Of a stretch of 64,000 nucleotides of DNA, positions 40,466 to 64,000 are shown piece after piece. A program made the position numbers and the translations under genes. The stretch is from the sequence record MT129654.1; one strand, 5' to 3'. Source of the stretch: Escherichia phage MN04. The notes under the pieces are model-generated. The model had not been told where the DNA came from. It made no database searches and saw only the letters and a list, made by a program, of their open reading frames with translations. How positions within the stretch are numbered: position 1 is the first letter of the stretch; every line of letters starts with the position of its first letter.

Positions 40466-40471
40466 GAAATT

Positions 40472-43409: not shown

Positions 43410-43416
43410 GAAAAAT

Positions 43417-45627: not shown

Positions 45628-45641
45628 TCTAAGGAAATATT

Positions 45642-46610: not shown

Positions 46611-46648
46611 ATCAATAAACGGAGGCTCCGGCCTCCTAAGAGGAAATT

Positions 46649-46846: not shown

Positions 46847-46847
46847 A

Positions 46848-47165: not shown

Positions 47166-47178
47166 TTTAACGGGTGAA

Positions 47179-47655: not shown

Positions 47656-47669
47656 TTTTAAAAATAAGT

Positions 47670-47699
47670 GTTTACATACACCATGGATGGTGTTACTAT
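47670..47699 (+). promoter_or_regulatory. early promoter, PeSL-like
   Basis: GTTTAC, 18 nt, TACTAT, then CTATCAACTACATGAGAGG. Confidence 0.55.
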
Positions 47700-47730
47700 C
47701 TTCCTATCAACTACATGAGAGGAAAACAAA

Positions 47731-47991
47731 ATGGATATCAAATTATATTACGCTAAACACAAAGTTACGGGTAAAGTTGTTGCCGCAATGTACGATGCAT
47801 CAGGTGAAGATGTTATTACGGAATTATCCCTTTCTAATTGTAGATTTCTTCGTCCTTTGATAGCGTCAAAAAAAGATTTACAAAAACTTATCGACGGTAA
47901 ATTAGATAATGTCGATGATATAGATATCCATTATGAACTCCGCCATGCACTGAATGATGGGTTTATGGAAATAAAAGAGCTAGTATTATGA
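47731..47991 (+). CDS. hypothetical protein (86 aa)
   Basis: GAGAGGAAAA SD behind a PeSL-like promoter. Confidence 0.45.
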   Translation: MDIKLYYAKHKVTGKVVAAMYDASGEDVITELSLSNCRFLRPLIASKKDLQKLIDGKLDNVDDIDIHYELRHALNDGFMEIKELVL

Positions 47992-48081
47992 GTAGCAAAA
48001 TGTGGTGCCTTATTTGGATAGCCTGTATCCCAGTGATTTGCGTATGTTTTAGTTTATTGTTGTGGAAATTGGCATAAATCA

Positions 48082-48110
48082 GTATACATCTCCATTAGAC
48101 ATGATATTAT
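48082..48110 (+). promoter_or_regulatory. early promoter, PeSL-like (variant -35 GTATAC)
   Basis: GTATAC, 17 nt, TATTAT, then AGACCTATCAACT. Confidence 0.45.
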
Positions 48111-48420
48111 AGACCTATCAACTAATGGAGATGATTATGAAAAACTTACTTAAAGCAATTTGGAACATGTTTGTGTTATTGGTTGTATTGAGCATTTTCC
48201 CAATAGTTTTTATGATTGACCATGTACGTGTATTCTTTAACTTCTGAGGAAAATATTATGGGTAATCGAATTTATAAAGTAAAGTTGCATGGTAAAGTGA
48301 TTACTACCGTTAGTTTTAATTTTTATATCAGCGCTGACTGCGCCCGCGATATCCTCATCGAGGAAGGATATAGCGAATACATCCAAATTGAAGAAGTTCT
48401 TTAATTCTGAGGAAAATATT

Positions 48421-48645
48421 ATGAAACTTTTTAAAGATATCGCAGTTGGTGAAAAATTTGTCTTAGGTAATGGTCAACAATTGATTCGCATTTCTCCTTT
48501 AATGGATAATAGTGAGCGGCCCATTCGTACTGAAAACTGTTTGGATTATCCTTTTTATCAAAAGCGTTTTGCTATTGAAAATAATACCGAGTGTTTCACG
48601 GTTGATGAACTGATGGAATTATCAGAAGAAGTCGACTCTGAATAA
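48421..48645 (+). CDS. hypothetical protein (74 aa)
   Basis: CTGAGGAAAATATT-ATG TIR. Confidence 0.4.
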   Translation: MKLFKDIAVGEKFVLGNGQQLIRISPLMDNSERPIRTENCLDYPFYQKRFAIENNTECFTVDELMELSEEVDSE

Positions 48646-48659
48646 TTGAGGAAAATATT

Positions 48660-49004
48660 ATGTCTAAAGTATTTTTTGGTAATTCTAAAGTTATGTTCTT
48701 TGAGCAACTCAGTCTTAAAGAGGCATTGGCAGCCTTCAATCAAGAACTGGTTACTGGGTTAGATTCAAAAACTATGGCAAGTGCGGATTTCGTTTTCGTT
48801 CAAGACCCGGATACAGGGTTTTATCGATTCATCAAATTCCGTATGAGCATGGACCCTGACTATCGTAGTGCTTACTATGTGAGTTACGAAAATGTTATCG
48901 AAGAATTACGTGATACCTATGGACGTGCTTTGAACCCACTGAATAAGGTTTATAATGCGTCCTTTTATACGAGCGGATTTATTTTAGAACAGCTACAAAA
49001 ATAG
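48660..49004 (+). CDS. hypothetical protein (114 aa)
   Basis: TTGAGGAAAATATT-ATG TIR. Confidence 0.45.
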   Translation: MSKVFFGNSKVMFFEQLSLKEALAAFNQELVTGLDSKTMASADFVFVQDPDTGFYRFIKFRMSMDPDYRSAYYVSYENVIEELRDTYGRALNPLNKVYNASFYTSGFILEQLQK

Positions 49005-49032
49005 TTTACAACCTCGAGAATCATGTTATAAT
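49004..49032 (+). promoter_or_regulatory. early promoter, PeSL-like
   Basis: GTTTAC, 17 nt, TATAAT; flanking near-palindrome GAGAATCAT/ATGGTTCTC. Confidence 0.55.
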
Positions 49033-49081
49033 GGTTCTCGTTGACTGGATAACAAAACATTAATCTACTGAGGAAATTGAT

Positions 49082-49531
49082 ATGAATACTTATATGACTC
49101 GCGGTAACGTTCTGTCTGCTGGTGCTACTACTGTTGCTTATGTTAAGAATGGCGAATACCAAAATGGTAAGCCTTCTAAAGAAATCTCAGCCCAGCCAGG
49201 CTTCTACTTCTTTGTTAAAGGTGAAGCAGATTCTCGTGTCGTAGCCGCTCGCTTTTATGTCGGCAACCAACGTTCAGCTCAAGGTCTTGATGGTATTGTG
49301 GCTAACATTCGTAAGAAACGTTCGCAATCAGCTCGTACTATGGCTGTGAATGGTGTAGTGTATGAAGTTCTTTATGTACCTGCTTCTAAAATGAAACCAC
49401 TGACTACAGGTTTTGGTAAGGGTCAAATTGCAATGGCTTTCACTCGCAACCATAGTTCCGACCTTCAGACCCTGGAAGAAATGAACCGCATGTTGGCTGA
49501 TAACTTTAAATTCGTTCTGCAGGCTTACTAA
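49082..49531 (+). CDS. ndd: nucleoid disruption protein Ndd
   Basis: 149 aa; RFYVGNQRS...[17 protein letters not shown]...TRNH...[19 protein letters not shown] matches recalled T4 Ndd. Confidence 0.85.
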
Positions 49532-49608
49532 TGAGCAATTTCCATAACGAACATGTGATGCAGTTCTATCGTAACAATCTTAAAACTAAAGGCGTCTTCG
49601 GACGCTAA
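49531..49608 (+). CDS. stp: Stp peptide (anticodon-nuclease activator / restriction inhibitor)
   Basis: 25 codons, [25 protein letters not shown], essentially identical to the recalled 26-residue T4 Stp; start overlaps the ndd stop. Confidence 0.8.
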
Positions 49609-49618
49609 TGAGGAAAAT

Positions 49619-49780
49619 ATGATTATCCTAGTTTTTATTGAACTTATTATGGCTATGGTTTGTTCAGTTTGCTTCTTTTTAGGTGTATGGACCCCTGGTC
49701 CGGTATTCTTAAGTTTTCTGTTTATTGGCTGGGTTCTTTCTACTTTTGTCGGTTTACTTAAGACGATTAAAAATGATTAA
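49619..49780 (+). CDS. small membrane peptide (53 aa); Ac-like by size and position
   Basis: AGGAAAAT-ATG; hydrophobic core; sits between stp and 52 where T4 has ac. Confidence 0.35.
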   Translation: MIILVFIELIMAMVCSVCFFLGVWTPGPVFLSFLFIGWVLSTFVGLLKTIKND

Positions 49781-49917
49781 GAAAATCTTGGGCTACTCGG
49801 TAGCCCTTGCTGCTTTATTGGTAGCACTGTATTATGGAGTAATATTCGGTCTTATCCAAGTTGTGCTTTTTATTTCCGATGTTATTATGGTTATTCATTC
49901 ACTAGTATGGTAAAATT

Positions 49918-51297
49918 ATGGCTGATGTAATTGATACCCTTTTTAAACAATCCTTAGATGTTTACGATGATGCTTTTACTCGTCGTGACTTAAAAAGCAT
50001 TATCGACAATGAAGCGCTGGCTTATGCAATGTATACTGTCGAAAACCGCGCCATTCCAAATATGATTGATGGCTTTAAACCTGTACAACGTTTTGTAGTT
50101 GCTCGTTGTCTTGATATGGCTCGTGGTAATAAAGAAAAATTCCACAAACTAGCTTCTATTGCAGGTGGTGTAGCCGACCTTGGATATCACCACGGTGAAG
50201 GTTCTGCTCAAGAAGCAGGTGCTCTGATGGCTAACACATGGAACAACAACTTCCCACTGTTGGATGGCCAAGGCAACTTTGGTTCTCGATTAGTTCAAAA
50301 GGCTGCAGCCTCTCGTTATATTTTTGCACGAATTGGAACTAATTTCGCAAAGGTTTATAAGGATACAGAATATGCTCCGGTTCATGCGGATGTCGAACAT
50401 AAGCCACCAGCTTTTTATCTGCCTATTATTCCTACTGTTCTTCTTAATGGTATTTCCGGTATTGCGACTGGTTATGCAACTAATATTCTTCCTCATAGTT
50501 TTGATTCTGTTAAGAAAGCTGTATTGCAGGTTCTTCAAGAAAAACGCGTAACCAAGCCTAAGGTGGCTTATCCGGAATTCCGTGGCGATGTGGTTGAGAT
50601 TGAACCAGGTAGTTATGAACTACGAGGCACGTATAAGTTCACATCTCGAACCCAAATGCATATCACAGAAATCCCGTACAAATACGACCGTGAAACGTAC
50701 GTGGCCAAGGTACTGGACCCTTTAGAAGACAAAGGGTATATCACGTATGATGACGACTGTGACGAGAATGGTTTCGGCTTCAAGGTTAAGATTCGTAAAG
50801 AATATGAATTGCCTACTGAAGAAAATAAGAAGCATGAAAAAATCATGAAGGACTTCGGGTTAATCGAACGTCGTTCGCAAAACCTGACCGTCATTAATGA
50901 GAAAGGTAAACTTAAGGTTTACGAAGATGTAGTTGAACTGATTCGTGATTTCGTTGAGGTCCGTAAGACCTTTGTACAAAAACGTATTGATGGTAAAATC
51001 ATCGAAACCGAAGAAGCTTTCAAACTGGCATTGGCTAAAGCTACATTCATTAAAGATGTTATTGATGGTGTGGTGGTTATCCAAGGTAAGACCCGTAAAG
51101 TTTTAACCGAAGAATTGGCCAGCAATAAAGTCTACGGTGAATACGCTGATAAACTCGTAGCAATGAATATTTTCCATATCACGTCCGATGAAGCTAAGAA
51201 ACTGGCTTTGGAAGCCAAGGCTAAGAAAGAAGAGCACCAATACTGGAAAACCACTGATGTTGTAACTGAGTATGTTAAAGATTTGGAGGCTCTATGA
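49918..51297 (+). CDS. 52: DNA topoisomerase II medium subunit gp52 (GyrA-like)
   Basis: 459 aa; ENRAIPNMIDGFKPVQRF (GyrA-type segment). Confidence 0.9.
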   Translation: MADVIDTLFKQSLDVYDDAFTRRDLKSIIDNEALAYAMYTVENRAIPNMIDGFKPVQRFVVARCLDMARGNKEKFHKLASIAGGVADLGYHHGEGSAQEAGALMANTWNNNFPLLDGQGNFGSRLVQKAAASRYIFARIGTNFAKVYKDTEYAPVHADVEHKPPAFYLPIIPTVLLNGISGIATGYATNILPHSFDSVKKAVLQVLQEKRVTKPKVAYPEFRGDVVEIEPGSYELRGTYKFTSRTQMHITEIPYKYDRETYVAKVLDPLEDKGYITYDDDCDENGFGFKVKIRKEYELPTEENKKHEKIMKDFGLIERRSQNLTVINEKGKLKVYEDVVELIRDFVEVRKTFVQKRIDGKIIETEEAFKLALAKATFIKDVIDGVVVIQGKTRKVLTEELASNKVYGEYADKLVAMNIFHITSDEAKKLALEAKAKKEEHQYWKTTDVVTEYVKDLEAL

Positions 51298-51398
51298 GCC
51301 TTGGAGTCGAGTTCTTGTTACTCTGTATCTTTGCTGTTATCCTAGGCCTGGCGACAGGCTTAGCTATAGGTTTAATAGCAGCCCACTTTAAAAAGTAA
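51294..51398 (+). CDS. small hydrophobic peptide (34 aa)
   Basis: ATG overlapping the gene 52 stop; single predicted TM helix; followed by a terminator. Confidence 0.3.
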   Translation: MSLGVEFLLLCIFAVILGLATGLAIGLIAAHFKK

Positions 51399-51420
51399 GG
51401 AACCTTCGGGTTCCTTTTTG
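51398..51420 (+). terminator. intrinsic terminator after gene 52
   Basis: AGGAACCTTCGGGTTCCT hairpin plus T5 (same sequence as at 31065). Confidence 0.65.
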
Positions 51421-51438
51421 GGTTTAGTGCAAAAAAGT

Positions 51439-51467
51439 GTTTACATCTGCTTTAAACATGATACTAT
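51439..51467 (+). promoter_or_regulatory. early promoter, PeSL-like (duplicate copy 1)
   Basis: GTTTAC, 17 nt, TACTAT, then AGACCTATCAAATAAATGAACTGAAAC. Confidence 0.55.
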
Positions 51468-51515
51468 AGACCTATCAAATAAATGAACTGAAACAAACAA
51501 CCCGGAGATACAAAA

Positions 51516-51743
51516 ATGAAATTTAAAATCGAAAACGAAATCGTTAAAGCTAAAAATGCTCTGACTGCTAACAAACTGGTTGTAGATGGTATTGAATATG
51601 ATATCTGTGGAGTTCGTGAAGAAAAACCCGGTGTTCTGACTTTCTTCACAATGATTTTTAAATTTAAAGGTGACACAGAATTCAAACAGTTTGATTTTGC
51701 CCCTGAAGACGAAATCGAAGTTCGTAATCTGAACATTAAGTAA
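51516..51743 (+). CDS. hypothetical protein (75 aa), flanked by duplicated PeSL-like elements
   Basis: ORF with GGAG SD between two near-identical ~60-bp cassettes. Confidence 0.45.
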   Translation: MKFKIENEIVKAKNALTANKLVVDGIEYDICGVREEKPGVLTFFTMIFKFKGDTEFKQFDFAPEDEIEVRNLNIK

Positions 51744-51782
51744 GTACTTTATTAGAGCTCTTGAAAAAGAGCTCAAAATAAA

Positions 51783-51811
51783 GTTTACTTCTGCTTTAAA
51801 CATGATACTAT
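51783..51811 (+). promoter_or_regulatory. early promoter, PeSL-like (duplicate copy 2)
   Basis: Near-identical to the 51439 copy over about 60 bp. Confidence 0.55.
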
Positions 51812-51848
51812 AGACCTATCAAATAAATGAACTGAAACGGAGATTAAA

Positions 51849-52484
51849 ATGTCTAAAATTACTTATATCATCAAAGCTTCTGAAGACGCCCTGAATGAAA
51901 AAACCGCTTCAATCTTAGTACATATCATCAAGCATAACTTCATCACTTCAGGCGAAGTCCGTGAAGCCCTGAGTGAACAATTTAGTGCAGCGGTAGTTAA
52001 CTCTAACATTGGTGTATTGATTAAGAAAGGATTCATCGAAAAATCTGGTGATGGACTGGTGGCTACGGGTGAAGCAATGGACCTAGTTCAAAAAGCTGCT
52101 GACCTGTTCGCTTCTGAAAATGCTCCAGAGATGTTGGAAAAACGTAAAACTCGCAGTTCACGTGGTGTTACTCCTGAAATGGTAGTATTGGCTGGTGAAG
52201 TTAAATCTTTGTTAGAAGACCGAATCGAGATTCGTGAAATCGCTGAAAACCGTAGCAATCTTGAAGTTCGATTCGCTAAACGTACCAACGGTATTCGTCA
52301 AATCGAAGTCCGTCGTGACGGAATGATGCGTATCTTCGGTTATAATATGACCGATAAAGAAAAACAAGTGTTTACTTCCTTGAATCTTGATGTTAAGATT
52401 AAGACTGGTGGTAAGAATACTTATATCGACTTCCAAAACGTATCATCTGAAGTTATCAAAACCGTAACCAACGCAATTATCTGA
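51849..52484 (+). CDS. motA: middle-transcription activator MotA
   Basis: 211 aa; MSKITYIIKAS...NSNIGVLIKKGFIEKSGDGL matches recalled T4 MotA (also 211 aa). Confidence 0.85.
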   Translation: MSKITYIIKASEDALNEKTASILVHIIKHNFITSGEVREALSEQFSAAVVNSNIGVLIKKGFIEKSGDGLVATGEAMDLVQKAADLFASENAPEMLEKRKTRSSRGVTPEMVVLAGEVKSLLEDRIEIREIAENRSNLEVRFAKRTNGIRQIEVRRDGMMRIFGYNMTDKEKQVFTSLNLDVKIKTGGKNTYIDFQNVSSEVIKTVTNAII

Positions 52485-52498
52485 CTGAGGAAATTATT

Positions 52499-52828
52499 AT
52501 GAACAAGCTGAATATTGTTAATGAACTTCGTCGTTGTGCAGAACCTACTCAAGAAGGTTGGGATATTTGGTACCATGGCGCTTATCTCGGCACTATTGTT
52601 AAGATTAAAGCAGGTAAATACTTAATCATCCGTGGTGGTTCTGAAGCTTCTATGGGAATTCGTAAGAACTTTATGGCAGCCATCAGCACCTTTGTTCCAG
52701 CTGCTTATGAAGTCTATAAAGCCGACTACAAAGAATACCAGGAATCACAACCGGTTATTCGTTCAATTGGTGTTAATAAAGCTCAACAGAAAACTTTATG
52801 GCAACGTGTTAAAGGATGGTTCAAATGA
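52499..52828 (+). CDS. hypothetical protein (109 aa)
   Basis: CTGAGGAAATTATT-ATG TIR. Confidence 0.45.
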   Translation: MNKLNIVNELRRCAEPTQEGWDIWYHGAYLGTIVKIKAGKYLIIRGGSEASMGIRKNFMAAISTFVPAAYEVYKADYKEYQESQPVIRSIGVNKAQQKTLWQRVKGWFK

Positions 52829-53163
52829 TTCCGATGGAACTTAACTGGGACGGCGAAGGTCATTCCCTTAAATTGATTGAAGAACAGCGTAATGATTGGG
52901 ACGAGCGTGTAGCTTTAGTAAACGGTATTAAGAAAATTTACCAACTCAACCTTCATATTGACAATGTTCATCTTGAATTTGGTATGCAGTTATTGCGGTT
53001 TCTTGAGATTATTTTTATAGAAAAGGTAAACATAACTTCGCATGGTGCTGGCCAATCGGTTGTTATTAAATTATCATCCTATTATAAAGGTGATTTAATT
53101 GAAACAGCCACCAAAATTCAAGAATTTGCTAAAGATAACGGCCATAAGGTGATTTTCAAATGA
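52816..53163 (+). CDS. hypothetical protein (115 aa)
   Basis: ORF, overlapping start. Confidence 0.45.
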
Positions 53164-53648
53164 ATCCATTAAAAGGTAAAGAATTATCCTTTAAAGACCG
53201 TATGGCTTTATTAGATAAAGCTCTTTCTCGTGAAACACCTGAAAGCTTAGCAGCTAAATTACGAGCCTATGGTGATTACACTGAATATTCGGAAGAGGAT
53301 GTTTTGGAAGAGGTTCCTGAAATCTGTTGGCAGATTGCTCATTGGAACAACAATGAAAAATATCAGCGACGAATTGTGTGTGCAGCCAATCGCTTTAAGT
53401 TAAAAGACGGCGGGACTTTGGTTATTCCTGGCGCGCGTCATTATTCAAAAGATATGGCGGAAGTGCTTGACCAAGTAAGTGATAAACTTGTGTCAGAGCA
53501 TGTTTGCGGTGATGACCAAGGATTTATCGACCAATACTCAAATTATTGGACTCGCGAAGAAGCAATGATTATTGCAACATATGCTAATCAAGTTCGTATT
53601 GAACGTGGTGGTAGTGAAAAAGAACTTTACTCTGAGGACCTTTACTAA
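53160..53648 (+). CDS. hypothetical protein (162 aa)
   Basis: ORF, overlapping start. Confidence 0.45.
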
Positions 53649-53929
53649 TGAATCTTAAACAACTCCAGATTGATGCAATCGAAGCCCATATCAACCATAT
53701 TAAACGTCTGAATGTTATGGTGGAAGATAATTGGGGAACTTATGTCAACCAACCGGCTTGGGATGCATTAGATCATGAATATATAAAGAATATTAGTTCT
53801 AAGACAATTCATGGGAATATGGAAGGGTTGAAGCCGTTCCTACGTGATATGTATATTGCAACTAATAAAGAAATTATCAGTTCTCTTGAATATCAATTAA
53901 GGAAATTACGTGAACAATCTTGTAGCTAA
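53648..53929 (+). CDS. hypothetical protein (93 aa); Arn-like by size and position only
   Basis: ORF between motA and asiA where T4 has arn; no sequence confirmation. Confidence 0.3.
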   Translation: MNLKQLQIDAIEAHINHIKRLNVMVEDNWGTYVNQPAWDALDHEYIKNISSKTIHGNMEGLKPFLRDMYIATNKEIISSLEYQLRKLREQSCS

Positions 53930-54232
53930 GCACGATTTCAATAAGGCTTCGGTCCATAAGGACAAGAAGAAAAATTTTAAAGAGTCCAAGCGTAAGCAGA
54001 AACATAAGGGTAAAGGGTATGAGTCATAACTTAGAGAATACCGTAACAGGTATGCGTACGCGTGAGCAGGAGTGCTTTGAGGAATTCCTAGGAGCTGATT
54101 TTAAGTTCCAGGAACCTATTGAAGAAATGTATCAGGAATATGTTAAAAAGAACGAAGAACATGTTTACAATCCATAAGGATATGTTATTATAGCCTTATC
54201 AGATAATGTCGTACTGAATTGAAGAGAATATT

Positions 54233-54508
54233 ATGACTAAAATTGAAATCGTTTCCGAAATTGCTACTATTGTTTCCATTTTGATTAAAACGGATTGTGA
54301 AGACATCATGCAACGCCGTGATGAGTTTATTGCCTTTTTGAATGAGTTGGGTATTCGTAATGAACATGGAAAGGAACTTAACGGTCTATCTTTTAATAAA
54401 CTCTTTAAGTCTTTAACTGAAGATGAACGTGATACTCTTATTGAGCAATTTAATGAAGGGTATGAAGATATACACCGTTATCTAATGATGTATACCTCCA
54501 ATTTTTAA
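54233..54508 (+). CDS. asiA: anti-sigma70 factor AsiA
   Basis: 91 aa; IVSILIK...FIAFLNELGI...LIEQFNEGYEDIHRYLMMYT matches recalled T4 AsiA. Confidence 0.8.
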   Translation: MTKIEIVSEIATIVSILIKTDCEDIMQRRDEFIAFLNELGIRNEHGKELNGLSFNKLFKSLTEDERDTLIEQFNEGYEDIHRYLMMYTSNF

Positions 54509-55158
54509 CGAGTTCGACCTAATGTCCTCCCGGCCTGACCACACATAGACGAAAGTCTAGGAAATCCTAAATCCGGTTTGATGTCATACCAGTATAATGA
54601 TATCGAACCGGCATAGATGTTATCCAAATTAAAAAACGGACATGAAAACATATACGTGAAATGGGTTTTCTTCTTTGTAGGAAGGAACACAGTTTCTGTA
54701 CTTGATTCAAAATAATTCCCGTTAACTCCCGCCATATACTCCACTGACGTTTTGTCAATCGGAAATCCTCCCGTATTTTTTGCGTCTACCGTTTCCGGTA
54801 ATTTACCCTCATAAGCAACCATGTCCACAAAATAATTCATGTTGGTTGGTCTAAAAGAATATATTGCTGTGAAGTCTGCGCCTGAAGAAGAATGCACTAT
54901 TCGGAGCTGCTCGATAGCCGCAATTTTAAATCTATTGTCCTGGTCTTGTCTAATCATTTCAGTATAAGAGGCATAAGTTGTCTCTTTATAAAAGTTTAGA
55001 ATATATTCGCCTTTATACCAAACCAGTGCCATAAAGAACAATAATATTACGACTAGGACCCGGGAAAAAACTACTTTCCCGGAAGAAGTATCTTTAAAAA
55101 TTCTATCAAGAAGTCCAAAAAGTAGGTCTGATAATGAAAATCCTACTTTTGGTTCCAT
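54505..55158 (-). CDS. t: holin T
   Basis: 217 aa; DLLFGLLDRIFKD, single N-terminal TM, YSFRP...YFVD..AYEGKLP, CPFFNLDNIYAG match recalled T4 T; late promoter TATAAATA just upstream. Confidence 0.9.
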   Translation of the reverse strand: MEPKVGFSLSDLLFGLLDRIFKDTSSGKVVFSRVLVVILLFFMALVWYKGEYILNFYKETTYASYTEMIRQDQDNRFKIAAIEQLRIVHSSSGADFTAIYSFRPTNMNYFVDMVAYEGKLPETVDAKNTGGFPIDKTSVEYMAGVNGNYFESSTETVFLPTKKKTHFTYMFSCPFFNLDNIYAGSISLYWYDIKPDLGFPRLSSMCGQAGRTLGRTR

Positions 55159-55176
55159 ACTTTTCTCCTTTAAAGA

Positions 55177-55184
55177 TATTTATA
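55177..55184 (-). promoter_or_regulatory. late promoter (TATAAATA) for holin t
   Basis: Reverse complement of TATTTATA gives exact TATAAATA on the - strand, just upstream of the t SD. Confidence 0.6.
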
Positions 55185-55200
55185 ATTTAATACTTTCGTA

Positions 55201-55974
55201 TTATAACCAAGAGCCGTAGATAGTGCCTGTAGCGCCCCATGATGGGGCGGAACCGAATACTGCTCTACCAGGAGCACCACCACCCGACCTGGATAAGTTT
55301 TTACCCCATCCATCTCCGCCCCAACCTCCAGCATCACCGCCATTGCCTCCGCCGAATTGGGAAGTGTAACCGGCGCCACCTGGACCATCATAACTAGCAT
55401 TGCCACCTGGCCAATTAACACCACCGCCGCCGAGACCAAATGGTCTGCCGCCACCGCCACCTGCTGTAGAATTTGCAGGCCAACTATTCTGTAATGATAC
55501 GGCACCGCCGCCACCACCACCGGAGGCTATCACACCATAATTCCAAATGCGAAGTCGCCCACCAATATCATTTTGGATTACGTCACCACCATTAGTGCCT
55601 GGGCTTCCATTTACGCTACCATTACCACCTCGGCCCCACATATGAACACCACCATGAATATTCAAAGTAACATATTCGTTAGGGGTATCACCGTACATAA
55701 AGAACAACGGAACATCTTTAGTATATGATACTAAGTTGCCTGTGATATTAAACACTATAGGAGCACCGCCGGCTTCAAAACAACGGTCTCTAAACCATTG
55801 CCCGTTAAAGTTATGGTCGGCCCCAAGCGTGTGAATTACTTCAACAGATCGACCTATCATATTACTCATCCAAAAAGGAACACCCATTCTTAATCTTACG
55901 GCTGCTCCTGCCATCCAAGGGTCTCCAGTTTGTACCCTTGCAGACCATCCTACCCACGGTCCTTCAACTGCCAT
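55201..55974 (-). CDS. 38: long tail fibre adhesin gp38 (T2-type, glycine-rich)
   Basis: 257 aa from the ATG behind GGAGG (the track's TTG start rejected); poly-Gly motifs ([25 protein letters not shown]) between conserved N- and C-terminal parts. Confidence 0.8.
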
Positions 55975-56005
55975 ATAAACCTCCAAGGGGCCTAAGCCCC
56001 TCTTA

Positions 56006-59000
56006 TTATTTTAACAATGATTTAACTAAAGCTTTAAGTTCTTCAATCTCTGATTTCAATTCTGTTATTTCGGCAGTATGCTCATTGATTGCAGCTGTAT
56101 TTAAACCAATTACACCGTTATAGTTCAAACGAAGTAAAGCTTCACTATTAGGGTCACCTTCAACCAATTCAGGTAAAATAGCTTGAACTTCTTGGGCAAT
56201 TAAACCAGCATTAGGTTCCCATTTCTGATTACCTTCCTCATCTAGGCCTCGCTTCTGCATATAAGTGTAACCGTTAATTTTAGAAAGCTTCTGAGAAGCA
56301 TTTTCAAATTTAACAAGGTCTTTTTTAACGCGAATATCAGAACGAACATAAACATCACGGACATATGTAGAATAGGCATCACTTTGTTGGATTAAATGAC
56401 CAAAAGAAATAATAGCCCTTCCTGTTTCGGTCCACAAAGCACCGGTGGTATCCCAAAGACCTTGATGGATATGGTAAGAGCTAGACCAAGATGCAATATG
56501 CATACCATTGGCAACCATATTGATTCGGCCATCACCGCCGTGTGATAATCCTGTGTCATTATCACCAATAGCAATACTAGGAGAGCCTAATCCGTTAACA
56601 GTTCCAACACCAATGGCAGGAGTCTGGACTAAAGTCGGGGCGTAAAATAAACCGCTAGAGTGGAATTCGAAAATACCTACAGGACCGTCGCCACGCTCGG
56701 CATTACCTACTCGAATTATCGCTTGTCCCCATGCTTGTGGAGTACGACGCATGCCTAATTCAACAGAAGTAGTATAACCCTGACCACTAATTACAGATCG
56801 GCCTTTAATAATGGGATAATAACTGTCTTCACCCACACTACCAAACTCAAGGAAATAAGGTGCTTCTAAGCCCCATTGGTCACCCCATGCACCAGATTTA
56901 TGTGCAATCCAGTTGGAACCGTTCATATAAATACGGTCTCGGTTTACATTGAATACTGAAGCACCTTGTGGAGATAAAACAACCTCACCATTATGGGTGA
57001 TATTAATACCACCTTGGGATTGGAAGCTCCAGAAGGCTAAACCGTTATCAGCACCACCATTACCTACATACCAGTTATCAACACCACCTTTTTTACCCTT
57101 AACATAACCAGCTTCATCTGCCGGATAATCAATAACAATAGCGTCTGAATTGGTTTTAAGAGTTAAGCGGCCTGTCATTGTGTCCCCGCCTTTACCAACA
57201 CGAGTATTCACCGCTGCGTCAAGGTTAGTAGCACCGCTATACTTGTTCCAAATAGAACCTGCAATATTACCATCAGTATTCATGAAAGCTGTACCGGCAT
57301 ATAAGCGGTTCTGAGCCATGAAGTTACCTTCTTTGGTAAAGCGCCAATATTTTAATCCTGTAGCATCACCATCACCAAGCAAATCACCTTGAGCAACAAT
57401 TCGATATTCACTTGTAGCTCGGTCCATACCTTGAGTAACAGTTACGTTCGAATCAATATTTTTCTGCTTAGTAATAGGGTAAAATGCTTGAGTTGCAGCA
57501 TCGAGCGTTTGATATACCAGAGCTTTAGTCGTGTTCTGGTTGGCATAAGATGCACCGTTACTATTAGGGAATTCTAATGCACCATTACCCCTAAAATAAA
57601 CCTGGTCTGCTTCTAAGTTAGGGATTTTAACCCGACCGGTGTCTAACATAATACTTAATGGGCGTAATGGACCCAATCCGCCACTTTCACCAGCATTAAC
57701 ATTGGTTGGGATAATATGTAGCTGGTCTTCTGAATTTCGAAAAATAACACCATACTTATCATTCCAAATACGAAGACCACTAGCAGCGCGGACTTTAATT
57801 TCATTGGAAACATATAGATTGCGTTTTAAAGATGTATCTTGACTGACAGACAATCCTTCGACGATGTTCATCGTGCCGTTTAAATAAGATTCGACTTTAC
57901 CTGCCGTATTTCGTTGAATATAGTGCATCCAGCCGGTAGCATCAGATGTTTCCAATACGTTTTTACGAGAACCACCTACCGTATTAAAAGTGTCACCCCA
58001 ACCTTTGAGCTCTATATTATCAACTGAACTATATCCTGAGGTACTTCCTTTAAAAAGCACAGTGGAAGCGTTACCACGACCGTCAATATTAACCGAACCA
58101 CCACGGACTTCAACGTTACCAGGAGTAACCAACAACCCACCATCAGTGTTAACGTTTGTTACACCTTTACCACGGAAATAATGGTGGTATTTACCACTCT
58201 GATGATAACCTAAAAGAGTCTGCCCATCACCAAAGCCGTTTTTATCATTAGTAGTATTAACAATAACTAATGGATAGTTTTGAGCTGTAGGAAGAATTAA
58301 ATCAGAACCGTTGGTTGAATAACCCGCAACTAACTGTTTAAGGCTTGTAACTTCAGTCGGAGTTGTAAGTAAAGTATAAGCTCCATTATTAACTGTATGG
58401 AACTGGCCGTCTTGTTTCCATTTCAAACCTGTGTTATTGTCACCAAGAGCAATTGAAGCCGTCCCTAATTCAGAATATCCTTTAGGGCCACCTGGAAGAC
58501 CTACAGAAATAGAATGACCGGCTTTCAATCCACCTGCCCAGTTAAACGACAAAATATAAGTGTCTAAGCCATCTCCGGAATACCAGGCTATTCCGTCATT
58601 AACATTAACTTCGTGGAAAATACCTGCTCCTACAGCATTTCGCATAACACGGAGGTGGTTAATAGCCGTTTCGCTTTCTGCCAATGGAGTGTTATTTGAT
58701 AATGAAGATATATCGTAATCGCCGGCGGCTTTACCGTCGGTAATAACTTTATTAGTATAAATTATTGGAGATTTTACCGATGTTCCACCAGAAATAGATG
58801 GAGCATAAAATAAACCGTCACCGTTGAATGCAAAAATATTAGATGTTGAATTAGTGTAATCCTGAACACGAACATTTAAGATTTGCTTGGTATCCCCAGC
58901 ACGGTTTTGAGAATAAATTATGCCTCTTTCACGCGCATCAGCCAAATCCTGGAATCGAACGTGGGTAGTTCCTGCACCCCGTACAAGAACTTCACCGTTA

Positions 59001-59320
59001 TCTGTCATTAGGCGAGATTTTGCTGTGATATCACCATTTGCTGTTATACTTCCGGATGTCGTATAACTACCTGTTTGGGTAAAAGCACCCTTCAGGGCAT
59101 AATCGCCGGTCTGGTTGTAGTTACCGTTATGAATAACGTTTCCGTCGATATTACCACCTTTAGCAAAGCCAAGGTCGATAATCGCTCCAGTGTCATCTTT
59201 GGTAAATAACAAACGGTCTTTTAAGTTAATAGCCAGCTCGCCTTCAGCCAACTGCGCTGGCGTAGGACGTACACCAGCTACTTTACTTCTTTTAAATTGT
59301 ATCTGTTTTAAAGTAGCCAT
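56006..59320 (-). CDS. 37: long tail fibre distal subunit gp37
   Basis: 1104 aa; [36 protein letters not shown] matches the recalled T4 gp37 N-terminus; C-terminal intramolecular-chaperone-like domain. Confidence 0.9.
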
Positions 59321-59328
59321 AATGCCTC

Positions 59329-59976
59329 TTAATAATAACCAAAATCTTGAATAGAATCTTTTTGAACAATCTGGTCAAAGCGAGGAACGTGTCCTGCACC
59401 AGAGGCCGGATTCCGTGAAATAAAGTTAGGAGCCGCTAGCACTCCATCCATTATTTGCATGTCAGTATTATTTATTTGGACCTGTTTTGCGTTATCTACT
59501 AATGACAATCCAACTTGAGCTTTAGTAGGGGTGTTGCCTGGGCTGAATACGCGGCCTGATTCATCATATACTTGACGGAATAATGAATCACCCATTACGG
59601 TAAGACGTTTAGCCCCAACTGTTGTATTTGGGTCAAATATCATAAACGGAGTACCATCTTCCGTTTCATATCCAAAAGCACCTTTAATACGGAAAGAAGC
59701 TGTGAACGGAGCCCCGCCGGTTCTTGCTCCTAATTTAATACCATATCCATTAGTATCATTAAAGGTCAAACCTTTTTCAAAATACACGTTGTTCTTATAA
59801 TTACCGCCGTTAGCTTTTGAAACGAAATCGTTATCAACTGCTTGAGGTTTATTATACTCGGTGTAAACTTTATATGTTTTGTAAAGAAGGTCATTTGATA
59901 CAGGCGTTAAGGGGAAATTACCTTGGTGCCATAATACCGAACCTCCTGCTGTAGAACCTAATTTTAAATCTGCCAT
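59329..59976 (-). CDS. 36: long tail fibre subunit gp36
   Basis: 215 aa; MADLKLGSTAGGSVLWHQGNFPL...HVPRFDQIVQKDSIQDFGYY matches recalled T4 gp36 termini. Confidence 0.85.
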   Translation of the reverse strand: MADLKLGSTAGGSVLWHQGNFPLTPVSNDLLYKTYKVYTEYNKPQAVDNDFVSKANGGNYKNNVYFEKGLTFNDTNGYGIKLGARTGGAPFTASFRIKGAFGYETEDGTPFMIFDPNTTVGAKRLTVMGDSLFRQVYDESGRVFSPGNTPTKAQVGLSLVDNAKQVQINNTDMQIMDGVLAAPNFISRNPASGAGHVPRFDQIVQKDSIQDFGYY

Positions 59977-60033
59977 TTTGAGTTTCCTTTGGGAGTTATA
60001 GCCTTTTATATATATTTATGGCTGTAGAAAACG

Positions 60034-60058
60034 AAAAAAAGGAACCCGAAGGTTCCTT
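60034..60058 (-). terminator. intrinsic terminator after gene 35 (- strand)
   Basis: Reverse complement reads AAGGAACCTTCGGGTTCCTTTTTTT. Confidence 0.65.
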
Positions 60059-61178
60059 AATATTTTTCTCTAAATTCAGCGACCCAAACCTGACCAGGTT
60101 TAGTGCCTGTTTTATCATATAGCTGGGCTATGGTAGTACCCATATTTTTAGTTTCCGTACCAAAGTTCATACGAATACCGTTAACACCAAATTCAGCAGG
60201 TTTTGGCTGAGGTTCTGATTCAGATATCTCACCGAACATAACATTTCGAACTCCGCCTTGGCCAGCCGAAGCTGTTTTTCTGGCATAAAGGGTAAAGTCT
60301 GTAGTACCTTCAGGAACCATTACTACCCGTTCAAACGTCATCCATGCACCAGCAGGAACGTTGGAAGGAACGTCCATATTAACTGTCCCAGTTAAAGCAC
60401 CTGAAGCATTAAAAAATCTAACAGACATCTGAGAAGTCCCGACGTCTTTTAAAGCCTGGTCGCACATCATTTGAAACTTAAGGTAAAAGAATTCACCTGG
60501 TTTCATATTATAATCTGTTAATGGGGTAGTAGGAGATTCGGTGGGAAATCGCTTAATTTCATCTCCCTCATTGCTTAGATAAGTGCTTTCGTCTTCAACA
60601 ATTCTGACAGGATATCCTGTACCACCGACGTCGCTGATATCATCAAATACCACTTCTAATGGAGTAGAAACATCTTCGACAAGCACCCCATCATTATAAA
60701 GCACATGTTCCATTACTATAGCATTCCTTCCCGAAACATAAAATGCTGAATAAGACGGCTCGAAGCGGTCTATTAGCCATTTAGATGGAAATGCGGTACT
60801 TCCTGCTGCATGGAACCAATCGATAAGTTTTTGTGAAGCATTTAATCTACCGGAAGATACTAAACAAACTATTCTATTGGCTGGTATAGAATTTATATAC
60901 GTTATAAAAGCTTCAGAAATAACATCAAAATCTTTTGTAAAACTATAAGTTTTGTTAGCCACTATTTTGGGTTCAGCACTAACATCGATTTCTATAAGGT
61001 TTAATCCATTTTGAAAATTTTGGGAACCGAAGTTCCCATCTTGAAATTTAACATATGCCTTTGTGGTAGACTTAGTACAACTACCCGCTATACTAAGTTT
61101 ATACCTTACGGCATTGTTTTCAGATAATGTAGGAACCTGGACATATCCTTGTCCAAATTCTGCCATAAATCTTTCCAT
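60057..61178 (-). CDS. 35: long tail fibre hinge protein gp35
   Basis: 373 aa ORF in the conserved 34-35-36-37 order; size matches T4 gp35. Confidence 0.8.
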   Translation of the reverse strand: MERFMAEFGQGYVQVPTLSENNAVRYKLSIAGSCTKSTTKAYVKFQDGNFGSQNFQNGLNLIEIDVSAEPKIVANKTYSFTKDFDVISEAFITYINSIPANRIVCLVSSGRLNASQKLIDWFHAAGSTAFPSKWLIDRFEPSYSAFYVSGRNAIVMEHVLYNDGVLVEDVSTPLEVVFDDISDVGGTGYPVRIVEDESTYLSNEGDEIKRFPTESPTTPLTDYNMKPGEFFYLKFQMMCDQALKDVGTSQMSVRFFNASGALTGTVNMDVPSNVPAGAWMTFERVVMVPEGTTDFTLYARKTASAGQGGVRNVMFGEISESEPQPKPAEFGVNGIRMNFGTETKNMGTTIAQLYDKTGTKPGQVWVAEFREKY

Positions 61179-61186
61179 AATACCTC

Positions 61187-64000
61187 TTATTCAATCCACT
61201 CAAATTTAACGGATTTAGTGACCGGGTCAGGAATAATGCGAACGTTACCAATACGTAACCAATCAAGGATTGTAATGTTACCCATTGTAGCGTTATCAGC
61301 AGGCAATGCACCAACCTCTTCCGCAGAAGGAGGGTTATCTGCGGTATAGACCATAGAGAACGTAGTCCATGCGTTTTTATTTTTCTGCCAGGTGCGAGTA
61401 TAACGAATAGTACCACCATTCAATCCTGTAGGATAGCACACCCAATCCTGATAACATGAATCCAATGTATTACCAAACTGTGTTAACGTACCAGGATATT
61501 TAACTTCCTTATCACGAACAGAATAATCAAACCAAGTACCACGTAATTTCTGACCTGATGTACCGAGAACTTCGTCACCAAAACTACCGTCTTCGTTACG
61601 ATAACGAATAGCCGGGGAACTAAATGCACCCGTTTCTGTCAACCAACCAGAAGCATTCCATATCTCATCAGAAACACCTGCAGGTTTAGTTTGGACCGTA
61701 TCGATATTAACCTGACGTTTAGTTTTCATCGTCCAATAACCTGGGAACAGGTTAAATGTAGCCGAATCATTGATATCGACAGACCAGAAGCCAACTGTTT
61801 CTGCAGTAGGGGCCTGGGATGCTAATGTAGGTTTAACACCAACAGAGCGGACGTATTTTTGAGCAACCAAACCATTGTTTGCCGATACTTGCCCTGTAGA
61901 AACGATAGTACCTGAAGTAGTTACGTTTTGCAATGAAGACAGAGCAGAAGCATTTAGTGTGGTTGTAGAAACACCGTTAGAAGTGGTTATACCTGTGATA
62001 TTAGCATTCTTAGAAATACTAATGGAACCACTATTAACAGCAAAGTCACCAGTCGTATTAAAGGTCCAGTAGGAAGATTCTAAAGAACCCGGCGATGGAA
62101 GATAATGTATTTTAAAATCACGAGTTCCATCGTTTACAGTGCCTAAAGAGAATGTACCTTGCCCTAAACGTTGTTTAACAATAGGATGGAACTTGGCATC
62201 CGGGGTCGAATTTATCTCGGCAAAAATCGGAGCTAAAGTATCGCCTTGAGAGTTCCAAGTACCGGCACCTGACTGTGGTCCTACAAATTTAATAGATTTA
62301 CCTGAGCTAACAGATACATCATTTTTAAAAGTAGAATTCCCGGTTACTTCCAGAGAACCTAAAATAGTGTTGCCGGTAATATTAGCAGTACTAGAAGACA
62401 CCAGAGGAGCCGCCAGGTTCAATTGTTTGGTCAGGATTAAAGAACCATTAACCGTTTGGTCGACGTCTCTACGAATGAACTGAAGTGAATCCAGACCATC
62501 CAATTTCTCGGAGTTCACAGCCGTAGCATTTATAGGTAAAAAGTTCTGTAAAGTTTTATTCATCTCGTAAGATGAAACCGCATAACCTGTTTTAGGATAG
62601 TTGGCTGCATTCAGAACAGTATCGTCGTTCTCATAAAGGCCTGTACCTGAGTTAAATTTAACACCAGAACCGGTAACTTTATTTCCTGAGTAAGTCAAAG
62701 CACCTTCGGTCAATTTAACAAATCCACGACGAAGTGCAGTAGCTTCCCAAGTGGTTTCGGACTGTACTACATATTTTAAACCAGAAGGGCTTACAGCCAG
62801 AACTTTAGAAGTTCCTGCAGTGGTTTCGGTATTCGTTGCAACACGAATAATACCTTCAGAACTTTCAGTAGATTTTTTAGAGTGTAATTTCAAAGGAGTG
62901 ATGATGGTTTTGTCATCAGTGCCAACATTGACTTCGGTCTGGGTAGCCAGACGAGCGGTACCACGTTGGGTCTCATTTGCTTCTCTAATATCTAGTGTAT
63001 AATGGTTCCATAAGGTTCCTGATTCAATCAAACCGCTGGCTGCTGAGACAGAAGTTCTAGCAGTATCATTAAGTCTTGTTTTAATTTTCAACGGAGTTGA
63101 AATAACATTATCTAACGTACCAGCATCAAATTCTGCTTGGGTTGCAATTCTAGCAATACCAGTCAATCCTTCCGTAGCTTTCCTGTCATTTAACGTTTTA
63201 GGCGTTACCGCACGAGTATAATCTGTTCCAGTATCGGTCTCTACTTGCGTAGCAATTTCAATTAACCCTGTACGAGTATCAAGAGCCACACGGGCATGCA
63301 ACGTTTCAGGAGAAACCGCACTGTTAGCAAATCCGCTAGCAGACTGTCCAGTATTAACTTCTGACTGGGTAGAAAGATATACTGTACCTTGTTGGGCTTG
63401 AGTAGCTTTATATTGGTCAAGTGCTTTAGGAGAAATAACCAAATTGCCTACGTTCTTATTATAAACGTTAGTACCTACAGTGTCCCTAGCAGTCGCAGGA
63501 GTGGTGTCCACCGTAGAGGTATATTTTACAATACCTGAAAGACTTTCAGTGCCCTGGCGCGTCTGTAGCTTCTTAGGAGTAATAATGGTGGTATCGTCAA
63601 CACCAGCATCAGTTTCCTGTTGCGTAGCAATTTCAGCTACACCACGACGAGTTTCGGTTGCAGTACGTTCGTTTAATTTCTTAGGAGAAATAATCAAATC
63701 GTCCTGGAATGCGAAGGTTGTGTCCTGGTTCACCTGAGCAGTAGTAGCAATACGAGCAATACCACGACGAGTTTCAGTGGCAACACGATTGGCTAAAGTC
63801 TGCGGAGTAATTGCAAGTTCTTTTTCAGGATTATTTTCATGGTCGACGTTTGCCTGGGTCTGAGACGCAAGGGCAATAACACCTAGACGAGCACGAGTTA
63901 AATCATCCTTAGAATCAACACGTTCTACCGTAGGAACGTTCTGAGCAACAACCCAATATTTACCACCTGTAGTGGTGTCTTCGATATAACTCAGTTCAAT
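61187..64000 (-). CDS. 34: long tail fibre proximal subunit gp34 (partial; N-terminus beyond the window)
   Basis: C-terminus GTLTQFGNTLDS..YQDW..YPT...ALP.DNATMGN.TI.D.LRIGNVRI.PDPV.K.VKFEW.E and internal PKKLNERTATETRRGVAEIATQQET repeats match recalled T4 gp34; the frame is still open at the window edge. Confidence 0.85.
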   Translation of the reverse strand: MELSYIEDTTTGGKYWVVAQNVPTVERVDSKDDLTRARLGVIALASQTQANVDHENNPEKELAITPQTLANRVATETRRGIARIATTAQVNQDTTFAFQDDLIISPKKLNERTATETRRGVAEIATQQETDAGVDDTTIITPKKLQTRQGTESLSGIVKYTSTVDTTPATARDTVGTNVYNKNVGNLVISPKALDQYKATQAQQGTVYLSTQSEVNTGQSASGFANSAVSPETLHARVALDTRTGLIEIATQVETDTGTDYTRAVTPKTLNDRKATEGLTGIARIATQAEFDAGTLDNVISTPLKIKTRLNDTARTSVSAASGLIESGTLWNHYTLDIREANETQRGTARLATQTEVNVGTDDKTIITPLKLHSKKSTESSEGIIRVATNTETTAGTSKVLAVSPSGLKYVVQSETTWEATALRRGFVKLTEGALTYSGNKVTGSGVKFNSGTGLYENDDTVLNAANYPKTGYAVSSYEMNKTLQNFLPINATAVNSEKLDGLDSLQFIRRDVDQTVNGSLILTKQLNLAAPLVSSSTANITGNTILGSLEVTGNSTFKNDVSVSSGKSIKFVGPQSGAGTWNSQGDTLAPIFAEINSTPDAKFHPIVKQRLGQGTFSLGTVNDGTRDFKIHYLPSPGSLESSYWTFNTTGDFAVNSGSISISKNANITGITTSNGVSTTTLNASALSSLQNVTTSGTIVSTGQVSANNGLVAQKYVRSVGVKPTLASQAPTAETVGFWSVDINDSATFNLFPGYWTMKTKRQVNIDTVQTKPAGVSDEIWNASGWLTETGAFSSPAIRYRNEDGSFGDEVLGTSGQKLRGTWFDYSVRDKEVKYPGTLTQFGNTLDSCYQDWVCYPTGLNGGTIRYTRTWQKNKNAWTTFSMVYTADNPPSAEEVGALPADNATMGNITILDWLRIGNVRIIPDPVTKSVKFEWIE

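Follow-up and report, generated by a model that had tools for sequence, protein, structure and literature searches.

We found that the locus described here very probably encodes the distal tip module of a long tail fiber of the T2/T6/S16 type, carried by a Dhakavirus-like T-even coliphage. In the window (the whole analyzed stretch of 64,000 nucleotides from Escherichia phage MN04), the genes follow the order 36-37-38-t with a convergent asiA, and gp37, gp38 and the holin t are all encoded on the minus strand (Table 1). Gene 38 lies directly downstream of gene 37, with a gap of 31 nt after the gene 37 stop codon, and is followed by the holin gene.

The gp38 sequence was 100% identical to the MN04 gp38. 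The same gene order is seen in Dhakavirus JS10, with which the 1,145-nt region under study shares 97.5% nucleotide identity. The JS10 gp38 was 99.2% identical and differed at two residues (K225N and A243S), while the JS10 gp37 showed 91% amino acid identity and diverged solely within residues ~75-185.

Between gene 38 and the holin gene we observed an exact copy of TATAAATA, the consensus of T4 late promoters. Scans of the whole window for tRNAs and Rfam families produced no matches. The scan for sigma-70 promoters and terminators around the locus stayed at the background level, with the exception of a hairpin in the 37-38 intergenic gap.

Table 1. Coordinates of the features of the tail fiber tip locus, with the basis of each assignment
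Feature	Coordinates	Strand	Basis
Gene 37, long tail fiber distal subunit, 1104 aa, 118.7 kDa precursor	56006..59320	-	ORF; Pfam; JS10 identity
Last ~50 residues of predicted mature gp37 (...YVRDVYVR993), interdigitated beta-helix tip	56342..56500	-	Alignment to 6F45_A
Predicted autocleavage site, between R993 and S994	56339..56344	-	DVYVR^SDIRVKK aligned to S16 DLNVS^SDRRIKK (PMC7917993)
C-terminal intramolecular chaperone domain, gp37 residues 994-1104, 111 aa, 12.4 kDa	56009..56341	-	PF13884
Pfam S74 core, gp37 residues 994-1053	56162..56341	-	PF13884
Long C-terminal helix, gp37 residues ~1067-1103	56012..56122	-	
Conserved 7-bp hairpin, 37-38 intergenic gap	55985..56002	-	Folding energy and conservation
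Gene 38, monomeric tail fiber tip adhesin, 257 aa	55201..55974	-	PF05268 and PF21721; PDB matches
gp38 N-terminal attachment domain, residues 1-40, Trp prongs W7, W20, W35	55855..55974	-	Gp38_N; conservation
gp38 specificity region, residues 114-236, conserved Gly-rich motifs alternating with hypervariable segments	55267..55635	-	Entropy, 69 homologs
Predicted receptor loop A, S120-P125 (SVNGSP)	55600..55617	-	Pairwise alignment to PP01 loop A, W119-I124 (PMC12892980)
Predicted receptor loop B, L161-T170	55465..55494	-	Mapped from PP01 loop B
Predicted receptor loop C, G184-W188	55411..55425	-	Mapped from PP01 loop C
Region with predicted loops D and E, about residues 203-233, including Q206	55276..55368	-	PP01 alignment
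T4-type late-promoter consensus between gene 38 and holin t	55177..55184	-	Exact motif
Gene t, holin, 217 aa, downstream neighbor	54505..55158	-	PF11031 Phage_holin_T, 1.4e-66

Family and fold of gp38

The gp38 ORF starts with an ATG (M1 of MAVEGPW) that has a GGAGG Shine-Dalgarno sequence 5 nt upstream. A longer product of 261 aa, starting from the TTG at 55986, was rejected since the homologs and the Pfam Gp38_N domain begin at the ATG, which the Shine-Dalgarno sequence also fits.

The sequence-only reading had described gp38 as a 257-aa protein with poly-glycine segments and with the architecture of T2/S16-type adhesins. The coordinates fit this description, and glycine accounted for 66 of the 257 residues (25.7%) and for 53 of the 149 (35.6%) in residues 109-257, compared to a background of 6.8% for the window's 43 long ORFs, among which gp38 was the most glycine-rich. 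The binomial P of the excess was ~4e-21 for the whole protein and ~2e-24 for residues 109-257. Glycine runs occupy G152-157, G172-176, G182-185, G208-210 and G231-233, and ten GG pairs come in addition.

The adhesin architecture held up as well. The Pfam GP38 adhesin family (PF05268) matched with E-value 1.7e-81 and 273.7 bits, and Gp38_N (PF21721), covering residues 1-40, with 3e-19 and 69.2 bits, against a cutoff of 25 in both cases. By sequence, gp38 matched two solved structures, the PP01 receptor-binding domain 9V85 (6e-74, 64% identity) and, in an end-to-end alignment, S16 gp38 6F45_D (2e-48, about 45% identity). The AlphaFold2 model (pLDDT 90.7, pTM 0.82) led Foldseek to the same pair in the PDB: 9V85 was the best structural match (E 7e-26, TMt 0.92, rmsd 1.8 Å), followed by 6F45_D (E 1e-23, TMq 0.85; TM 0.85-0.88), and beyond these two no PDB match to the model fell below E 4. 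The assignment of gp38 to the T2/S16-type adhesins is thus supported by Pfam, by the two solved gp38 structures and by the predicted fold, and the model supports a beta-helix plus a polyglycine-II sandwich. With S16, gp38 shares the three-domain layout of attachment domain, beta-helix and sandwich.

In the modeled N-terminal domain we saw three helices, at residues 8-16, 21-27 and 36-39. Of the 69 homologs, 67 have W7, 66 have W20 and 59 have W35; the role of these tryptophans as prongs is taken from S16 gp38 (PMC6851490).

Orthologs in JS10, IME281, RB69 and other phages are labeled 'gp38 distal long tail fiber assembly catalyst', and T4 resembles MN04 in the genome position of genes 37 and 38 and in the overall organization of the long tail fiber. 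In a T4-type arrangement, gp38 would be an assembly catalyst only, staying outside the virion, and the C-terminus of gp37 would bind the receptor. We regard such an arrangement as extremely improbable. T4 gp38, an unrelated chaperone absent from virions, had no similarity to MN04 gp38 (BLASTP E 1.1) and matched no Pfam family, whereas MN04 gp38 matched the adhesin families; the 'assembly catalyst' annotation was rejected on these grounds as a legacy name. Furthermore, MN04 gp37 ends in an S74 chaperone, while T4 gp37 lacks an S74 domain and has a receptor-binding tip of its own with a Collar domain. The RB69 record itself carries a note calling the T2-type gp38 the adhesin. Going by S16, T2, PP01 and the OmpF-dependent relatives, we infer that the gp38 adhesin would be present in virions, where it would cap the gp37 trimer (PMC6851490, PMC3157838, PMC12892980, PMC8594841).

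The C-terminal domain of gp37 and its predicted cleavage

Pfam placed three domains in gp37: Gp34_trimer, gp37_trimer and Peptidase_S74. The match to the last of these (PF13884, cutoff 22) reached 51.4 bits with E-value 1.3e-13 for the C-terminal fragment and 47.3 bits for the whole gp37. This domain forms the extreme C-terminus (residues 994-1104 of 1104) and is preceded by the trimer domains and by a homolog of the S16 gp37 beta-helix. It contains a Ser-x4-Lys motif, SDIRVK, with the serine at 994 and the lysine at 999, which aligned with SD.R.K of S16, MyRF, 8JOV and 3GUD; S994, D995 and K999 were kept in every homolog covering the site. The serine and the lysine of S74 domains reportedly constitute a catalytic dyad (Schulz et al. 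2010, cited in PMC7917993).

Searching for homologs of the 134-aa gp37 tail yielded 13 proteins, a number adequate for a profile and a thin alignment for structure prediction. The profile search matched the MyRF ICA 7DC3 (1e-10) and 8JOV (1.7e-9) and, weakly, 3GUD (a GA-1-type neck appendage) and 8HQZ_d (the T5 L-shaped fiber). Block-mean pLDDT of the AlphaFold2 model of the chaperone domain was 84-96. Foldseek was run with a monomer, while the domain works as a trimer; it matched MyRF ICA 7DC3 (E 9e-6, prob 1.0, TM 0.57) and, marginally, the endosialidase chaperone 3GW6 (E 0.1-0.7, prob 0.4-0.87). The Peptidase S74 chaperones (endoNF 3GW6, MyRF ICA 7DC3, T5 pb1) resemble the gp37 tail in the Pfam match, in the N-terminal Ser-x4-Lys, in having a long C-terminal helix after a beta-hairpin core, and in terminating a trimeric beta-helical fiber. 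Sequence identity to members beyond the T-even phages is low (about 12-25%).

By its sequence matches and by the fold match to MyRF ICA, the gp37 tail is assigned to the Peptidase_S74 intramolecular chaperones, Ser/Lys motif included. This agrees with the earlier suggestion of a resemblance to auto-cleaving chaperone domains. Of the limits proposed for the domain at that time, the start at SDIRVKKDL (S994) was kept, and the region of interest, ending at 56345, takes in 4 nt upstream of that serine codon. The proposed end at ...ILPELV had to be moved, since the domain reaches residue 1104 and includes the long C-terminal helix.

The alignment of the tail to the S16 gp37 fragment 6F45_A (E 1.7e-38) covered the cleavage site and the entire chaperone. 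In S16, autocleavage at VS^SD removes the last 113 residues of gp37 and uncovers the face on which gp38 docks (PMC7917993). For T2 and T6, a statement in PMC3157838 that cites Drexler 1986 has gp37 cleaved and then capped by gp38. By analogy, a cut at DVYVR^SD is predicted to yield a mature gp37 of 106.3 kDa and a fragment of 12.4 kDa. Immediately before the scissile bond, MN04 has an arginine and S16 a serine, and the chaperone has 111 residues compared to 113. The function of the gp37 tip as the docking face for gp38 is adopted from the S16 structure (PMC6851490, PMC7917993). Docking of a separate adhesin on the newly released C-terminus is a difference from the endosialidases.

The cleavage of MN04 gp37 is a prediction from sequence, and some members of the S74 family are known from sequence alone. 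One may therefore think of a degenerate S74-like domain retained on the mature gp37, with gp38 binding elsewhere or nowhere, which we consider highly improbable. The Ser and Lys of SDxRxK are intact and conserved. The domain is 93% identical at the nucleotide level to that of PSD2002, a phage from the same genus with 64% identity in gp38, despite mosaic flanks on both sides, and it is nearly identical in PP01, which implies strong selection. In addition, S16 gp38 docks on a face exposed solely by cleavage (PMC7917993, PMC6851490). Returning to the self-cleaving chaperone, we expect that it is probably discarded after folding.

Specificity region and probable receptor of gp38

Per-column entropy over the 69 homologs averaged 0.74 bits at the glycines of the gp38 C-terminal domain and 1.71 bits elsewhere. 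The invariant or near-invariant stretches were G114-117, G152-157 and G172-180 (the GRGG, GGGGGG and GGGGGRPFG blocks), and the variable blocks fell at about 120-128, 158-171, 181-189, 201-209 and 214-232. In close relatives, cross-linking, mutagenesis and swaps placed the receptor contacts in the loops between the glycine motifs (PMC12892980, PMC3157838, bioRxiv 10.64898/2026.04.02.716166).

The proposal of the sequence-only reading that these loops are the likely specificity sites is consistent with both observations. Its wider claim, that gp38 and the gp37 domain together determine host range, stands for the gp38 loops; the chaperone domain, being probably discarded after folding, would be an assembly device and not a host-range determinant.

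Predicted loop B coincides with a high-entropy block and holds the sole segment of the gp38 model with pLDDT <50 (residues 164-166), as expected of a flexible exposed loop. The limits of loops D and E are approximate because the PP01 alignment is gapped there, with both loops differing in PP01; the position of Q206 comes from a gap-free alignment with RB51. PP01 binds O157 OmpC, which is contacted by its loops D and E (PMC12892980). S16 gp38, with loop sequences different from those of MN04, has the Salmonella OmpC as receptor.

On sequence grounds, the receptor of gp38 is likely OmpF. Identity of MN04 gp38 was 93% to RB69, 91% to RB51 and 87% to Bas47 (AlbertHofmann), and all three phages are OmpF-dependent (PMC3157838, PMC8594841, bioRxiv 10.64898/2026.04.02.716166). 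They belong to other genera (Mosigvirus, Tequatrovirus), their gp38 proteins are of equal length or within 2 aa, and their hypervariable segments are nearly identical to those of MN04.

On the other hand, the same machinery could serve a receptor other than OmpF if the residues that differ from RB51 and RB69 had retargeted gp38 to a different target among porins and porin alleles (e.g., OmpW, OmpC, Tsx, OmpA or FadL). About 10 such differences fall in the specificity region (S120T, S124N, PA166-167AP, S169A, L181I, G196A, W218R, K225N, N226H and A243S), and a single change, Q206L, is enough to switch an RB51-type gp38 from OmpF to OmpW (bioRxiv 10.64898/2026.04.02.716166). At position 218, MN04 has a tryptophan, found in 3 of the 69 aligned sequences with its own included, where RB51, RB69 and Bas47 have an arginine. 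Still, we think such a retargeting unlikely: Q206 is kept in MN04 as in the three relatives, HVS2 and HVS3 match those of the OmpF users once two loop B differences, the PA/AP swap and an S-to-A change, are set aside, and the more distant Bas47 is also an OmpF user (PMC8594841).

Proposed assembly model, intergenic hairpin and use of the locus

In the model that we propose, gp37 would be synthesized as the 118.7 kDa precursor, whose residues S994-K1104 (111 residues) would fold as the Peptidase_S74 intramolecular chaperone. The chaperone would nucleate trimerization and folding of the beta-helical fiber, starting from the C-terminal end, and the S994/K999 dyad would then cleave the R993-S994 bond. 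Departure of the 12.4 kDa chaperone trimer would expose a flat trimeric end (...DVYVR), to be capped by one gp38 monomer through the three-helix N-terminal domain with its Trp prongs. The remainder of gp38 would form a small beta-helix with a polyglycine-II sandwich made from the conserved glycine runs, and the hypervariable segments between the runs would become distal loops that bind a porin of the outer membrane, with OmpF as the most probable one. We saw no sequence feature that contradicts this model. Its receptor identity, cleavage step and 3:1 docking are carried over from S16, T2, PP01, RB51 and Bas47.

The intergenic hairpin abuts the GGAGG Shine-Dalgarno sequence of gene 38 (55980..55984) on its upstream side and is terminator-like on the plus strand. 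The 56-nt stretch containing it had a folding energy of -17.8 kcal/mol (z -2.7). We found the hairpin kept in JS10, RB51, RB69 and PP01, and a compensatory pair swap in Bas47.

An adhesin cap, a polyglycine sandwich, a self-cleaving chaperone and modular exchange at glycine motifs are already described biology. We consider it quite unlikely that gp38 has been retuned by its substitutions (among them W218, K225/N226 and, in loop B, the PA/AP swap) toward some other porin or allele of a porin, or that the hairpin next to the ribosome-binding site of gene 38 is a regulatory element, e.g., one setting the 1:3 ratio of gp38 to gp37 or stopping antisense early transcription. The Q206L conversion of an OmpF binder into an OmpW binder is a precedent for such retuning.

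In practical terms, the locus allows a sequence-based prediction of the host range and of the receptor, which is probably OmpF. For retargeting the phage, the stretch to swap or mutate would be the specificity region, roughly 370 nt in length.

Gene layout at the tip locus

Genes 37, 38 and t, coding for the distal subunit of the long tail fibre (gp37), the tip adhesin (gp38) and the holin, were found consecutively on the minus strand by ORF listing and Pfam. The span 55201..56345 takes in gene 38 and the final 112 codons of gene 37, with 31 nt of intergenic DNA in between.

Features of the tip locus, with nucleotide identity to the same-genus phage PSD2002
Feature	Position	Strand	Description	Identity to PSD2002
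Gene 37	59320..56006	-	1104-aa ORF; Pfam Gp34_trimer, gp37_trimer, Peptidase_S74	
gp37 shaft			mosaic over full length	46-89%
gp37 patch divergent from JS10	58770..59100		residues ~75-185	
gp37 chaperone domain	56009..56341			93%
gp37 S994 codon	56341..56339		first residue of SDIRVKKDL	
37-38 gap hairpin	55985..56002	-	GAGGGGC-UUAG-GCCCCUU	
Gene 38	55974..55201	-	257-aa ORF from ATG; Pfam GP38 (1.7e-81), Gp38_N (3e-19)	
gp38 N-terminal half				81-82%
gp38 C-terminal half				50-66%
gp38 predicted loops A, B, C	S120-P125, L161-T170, G184-W188		mapped by alignment to PP01	
gp38 predicted loops D, E	within about residues 203-233		from PP01; placement less precise	
TATAAATA	55177..55184	-	exact T4 late-promoter consensus	
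Gene t	55158..54505	-	217-aa ORF; Pfam T holin (1.4e-66)	92-99%
asiA	54233..54508	+		
asiA/t overlap	54505..54508		4 nt, at stop codons	

M1 (MAVEGPW) is the first residue in all gp38 homologues and in the Pfam N-terminal model, and a Shine-Dalgarno sequence (GGAGG) precedes the ATG by 5 nt; therefore, the length of 257 aa given in the sequence-only reading stands. On the same grounds the TTG start at 55986, an option of the ORF lister, was ruled out.

Most of the 37-38 gap is taken up by a 7-bp GC-rich hairpin ending 0 nt ahead of the gene 38 Shine-Dalgarno sequence. It is kept in JS10, RB51, RB69 and PP01, the Bas47 version carrying a compensatory swap (G-C to C-G), and in the plus-strand reading it has an intrinsic terminator score. 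It might regulate the translation or stoichiometry of gp38, stabilise the mRNA or stop antisense early transcription.

The exact TATAAATA motif falls in the space separating the stop of gene 38 from the start of t, 19 nt ahead of the t ATG; it is a candidate promoter and suggests that t may be served by a late promoter of its own. The overlap of the convergent genes asiA and t is also present in the Dhakavirus relatives JS10 and PSD2002, whereas the T4 genes lie end to end and do not overlap. The JS10 annotation names the three genes 37, 38 and t and has asiA, motA and gene 52 running towards them from the opposite strand. Neither a tRNA gene nor an Rfam family at its gathering score was detected in scans of the whole 64-kb window (1..64000).

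The gp38 adhesin and its variable loops

The gp38 protein is an adhesin of the T2/S16 type, as had been proposed. Besides the Pfam matches, it aligned end to end with the receptor recognition protein of Salmonella phage S16 (6F45_D, E 2e-48), and its residues 36-255 aligned with the receptor-binding domain of gp38 of the Tequatrovirus PP01 (9V85, E 6e-74). The AlphaFold2 model, made with 69 homologues as input (pLDDT 90.7, pTM 0.82), has three helices at the N-terminus; beta strands and long Gly-rich stretches without regular structure come after them. A fold search of the PDB with this model returned 9V85 (TMt 0.92, rmsd 1.8 A) and 6F45_D (TMq 0.85) and nothing beyond them, the next match having E >4. 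Three tryptophans plug S16 gp38 into gp37 (PMC6851490); the corresponding W7, W20 and W35 are conserved in 67/69, 66/69 and 59/69 homologues, respectively. The JS10 and RB69 orthologues are labelled 'assembly catalyst', which we consider a legacy name because gp38 does not resemble T4 gp38 in sequence (E 1.1) and T4 gp37, unlike gp37 here, lacks the S74 domain.

Glycine makes up 66 of the 257 residues (25.7%; P about 4e-21) and 53 of the 149 residues at 109-257 (P about 2e-24), compared to a background of 6.8% over the window's 43 long ORFs, among which gp38 is the richest by far. The runs (G152-157, G172-176, G182-185, G208-210 and G231-233) are accompanied by ten GG pairs, a pattern that exceeds chance. 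Across the 69 homologues, GRGG (114-117), GGGGGG (152-157) and GGGGGRPFG (172-180) were invariant or nearly so, and the mean column entropy in the C-domain was 0.74 bits at glycine positions compared to 1.71 bits at the others. The variable blocks lie at about 120-128, 158-171, 181-189, 201-209 and 214-232. Poly-glycine segments separated by variable loops were thus borne out. Residues 164-166, in loop B, were the sole segment of the model with pLDDT <50.

In PP01, loops D and E were put on OmpC by cross-linking and mutagenesis (PMC12892980). Deletions in T6 gp38 showed that every glycine motif and hypervariable segment tested was needed, and the glycine motifs are where exchange takes place (PMC3157838). 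A swap of the distal gp38 half led to the use of a different porin (bioRxiv 10.64898/2026.04.02.716166). The variability among homologues and these experiments on relatives support the suggestion that the loops between glycine motifs are the likely specificity sites.

The gp37 C-terminal chaperone

The tail of gp37 is an S74 intramolecular chaperone, in agreement with its earlier description as chaperone-like. Residues 994-1053 matched Peptidase_S74 with E 1.3e-13 and 51.4 bits (Pfam cutoff 22 bits), and the last 151 residues aligned with the S16 gp37 construct (E 1.7e-38). A profile built from the gp37 tail plus homologues matched the MyRF ICA domain (1e-10) and the tail fibre in 8JOV (1.7e-9) and, weakly, the neck-appendage chaperone 3GUD and the T5 L-shaped fibre 8HQZ_d. 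We observed the catalytic SD.R.K motif in register in every printed alignment (S16, MyRF, 8JOV, 3GUD), with S994, D995 and K999 kept in all homologues covering these positions. In the monomer AF2 model, the chaperone domain (block-mean pLDDT 84-96) shows a beta-hairpin core with a C-terminal helix of 37 residues; the fold search with this model placed MyRF ICA first (E 9e-6), and the endosialidase chaperone 3GW6, a marginal match, came after it (E 0.1-0.7, prob up to 0.87).

S16 gp37 loses its last 113 residues by autocleavage at DLNVS^SDRRIKK, and the docking face for gp38 is thereby exposed (PMC7917993). At the homologous site of this phage, DVYVR993|S994DIRVKK, a cut is predicted to give a mature gp37 of 106.3 kDa and a released fragment of 12.4 kDa. 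For T2 and T6, gp37 cleavage followed by gp38 capping is long established, according to a passage of PMC3157838 citing Drexler et al. 1986. The analysis of this sequence itself establishes the homology, the catalytic motif, the predicted folds, the docking tryptophans and the pattern of conserved and variable positions. From relatives we infer that the chaperone would drive trimer folding, C-terminus first, and would then cut itself off; one gp38 monomer would dock on the new gp37 end, and the distal loops of gp38 would bind a porin. The chaperone would be an assembly device, probably absent from the virion and thus not itself a determinant of host range. Of the two host-range determinants named in the sequence-only reading, gp38 with its loops is supported, and the chaperone is probably not one.

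Mosaicism and the likely receptor

The 1145 nt of the span were 97.5% identical to JS10, and gp38 showed 100% protein identity to Escherichia phage MN04 gp38. The tip feature is already known, with near-identical sequences deposited and structures of close homologues solved; the observation is confirmed and its interpretation supported. The closest backbones over 24 kb were other Dhakavirus phages (91-95%). Nucleotide identity to PSD2002 changes sharply along the locus. At the protein level, gp38 is only 64% identical to that of PSD2002, compared to 93% for the Mosigvirus RB69. This mosaicism reflects a known process, in which adhesin specificity domains are exchanged as cassettes.

The gp37 chaperone domain forms an island of high conservation flanked by two hypervariable regions, and that of PP01 is almost identical to it at the protein level. 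This domain and the gp38 N-terminal domain could jointly serve as a homology arm for adhesin-cassette exchange. We also observed that gp37 was 91% identical to JS10 gp37 overall, with nearly all divergence in one N-proximal patch, which suggests that this part of the fibre shaft has undergone recombination.

Besides RB69, close gp38 relatives were found in RB51 (91%) and Bas47 (AlbertHofmann; 87%), with zero indels relative to RB51 and RB69. OmpF is needed by RB69 and RB51 (PMC3157838), and the ompF dependence of Bas47 was complemented (PMC8594841). RB51 uses OmpF, while RB68 with Q206L uses OmpW (bioRxiv 10.64898/2026.04.02.716166); Q206 is present here. Given this closeness and Q206, OmpF is our best guess for the receptor, and quite a probable one. 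The specificity region carries about 10 substitutions, among them W218, seen in just 3 of the 69 aligned sequences with the window's own counted. These substitutions leave room for an altered allele preference.
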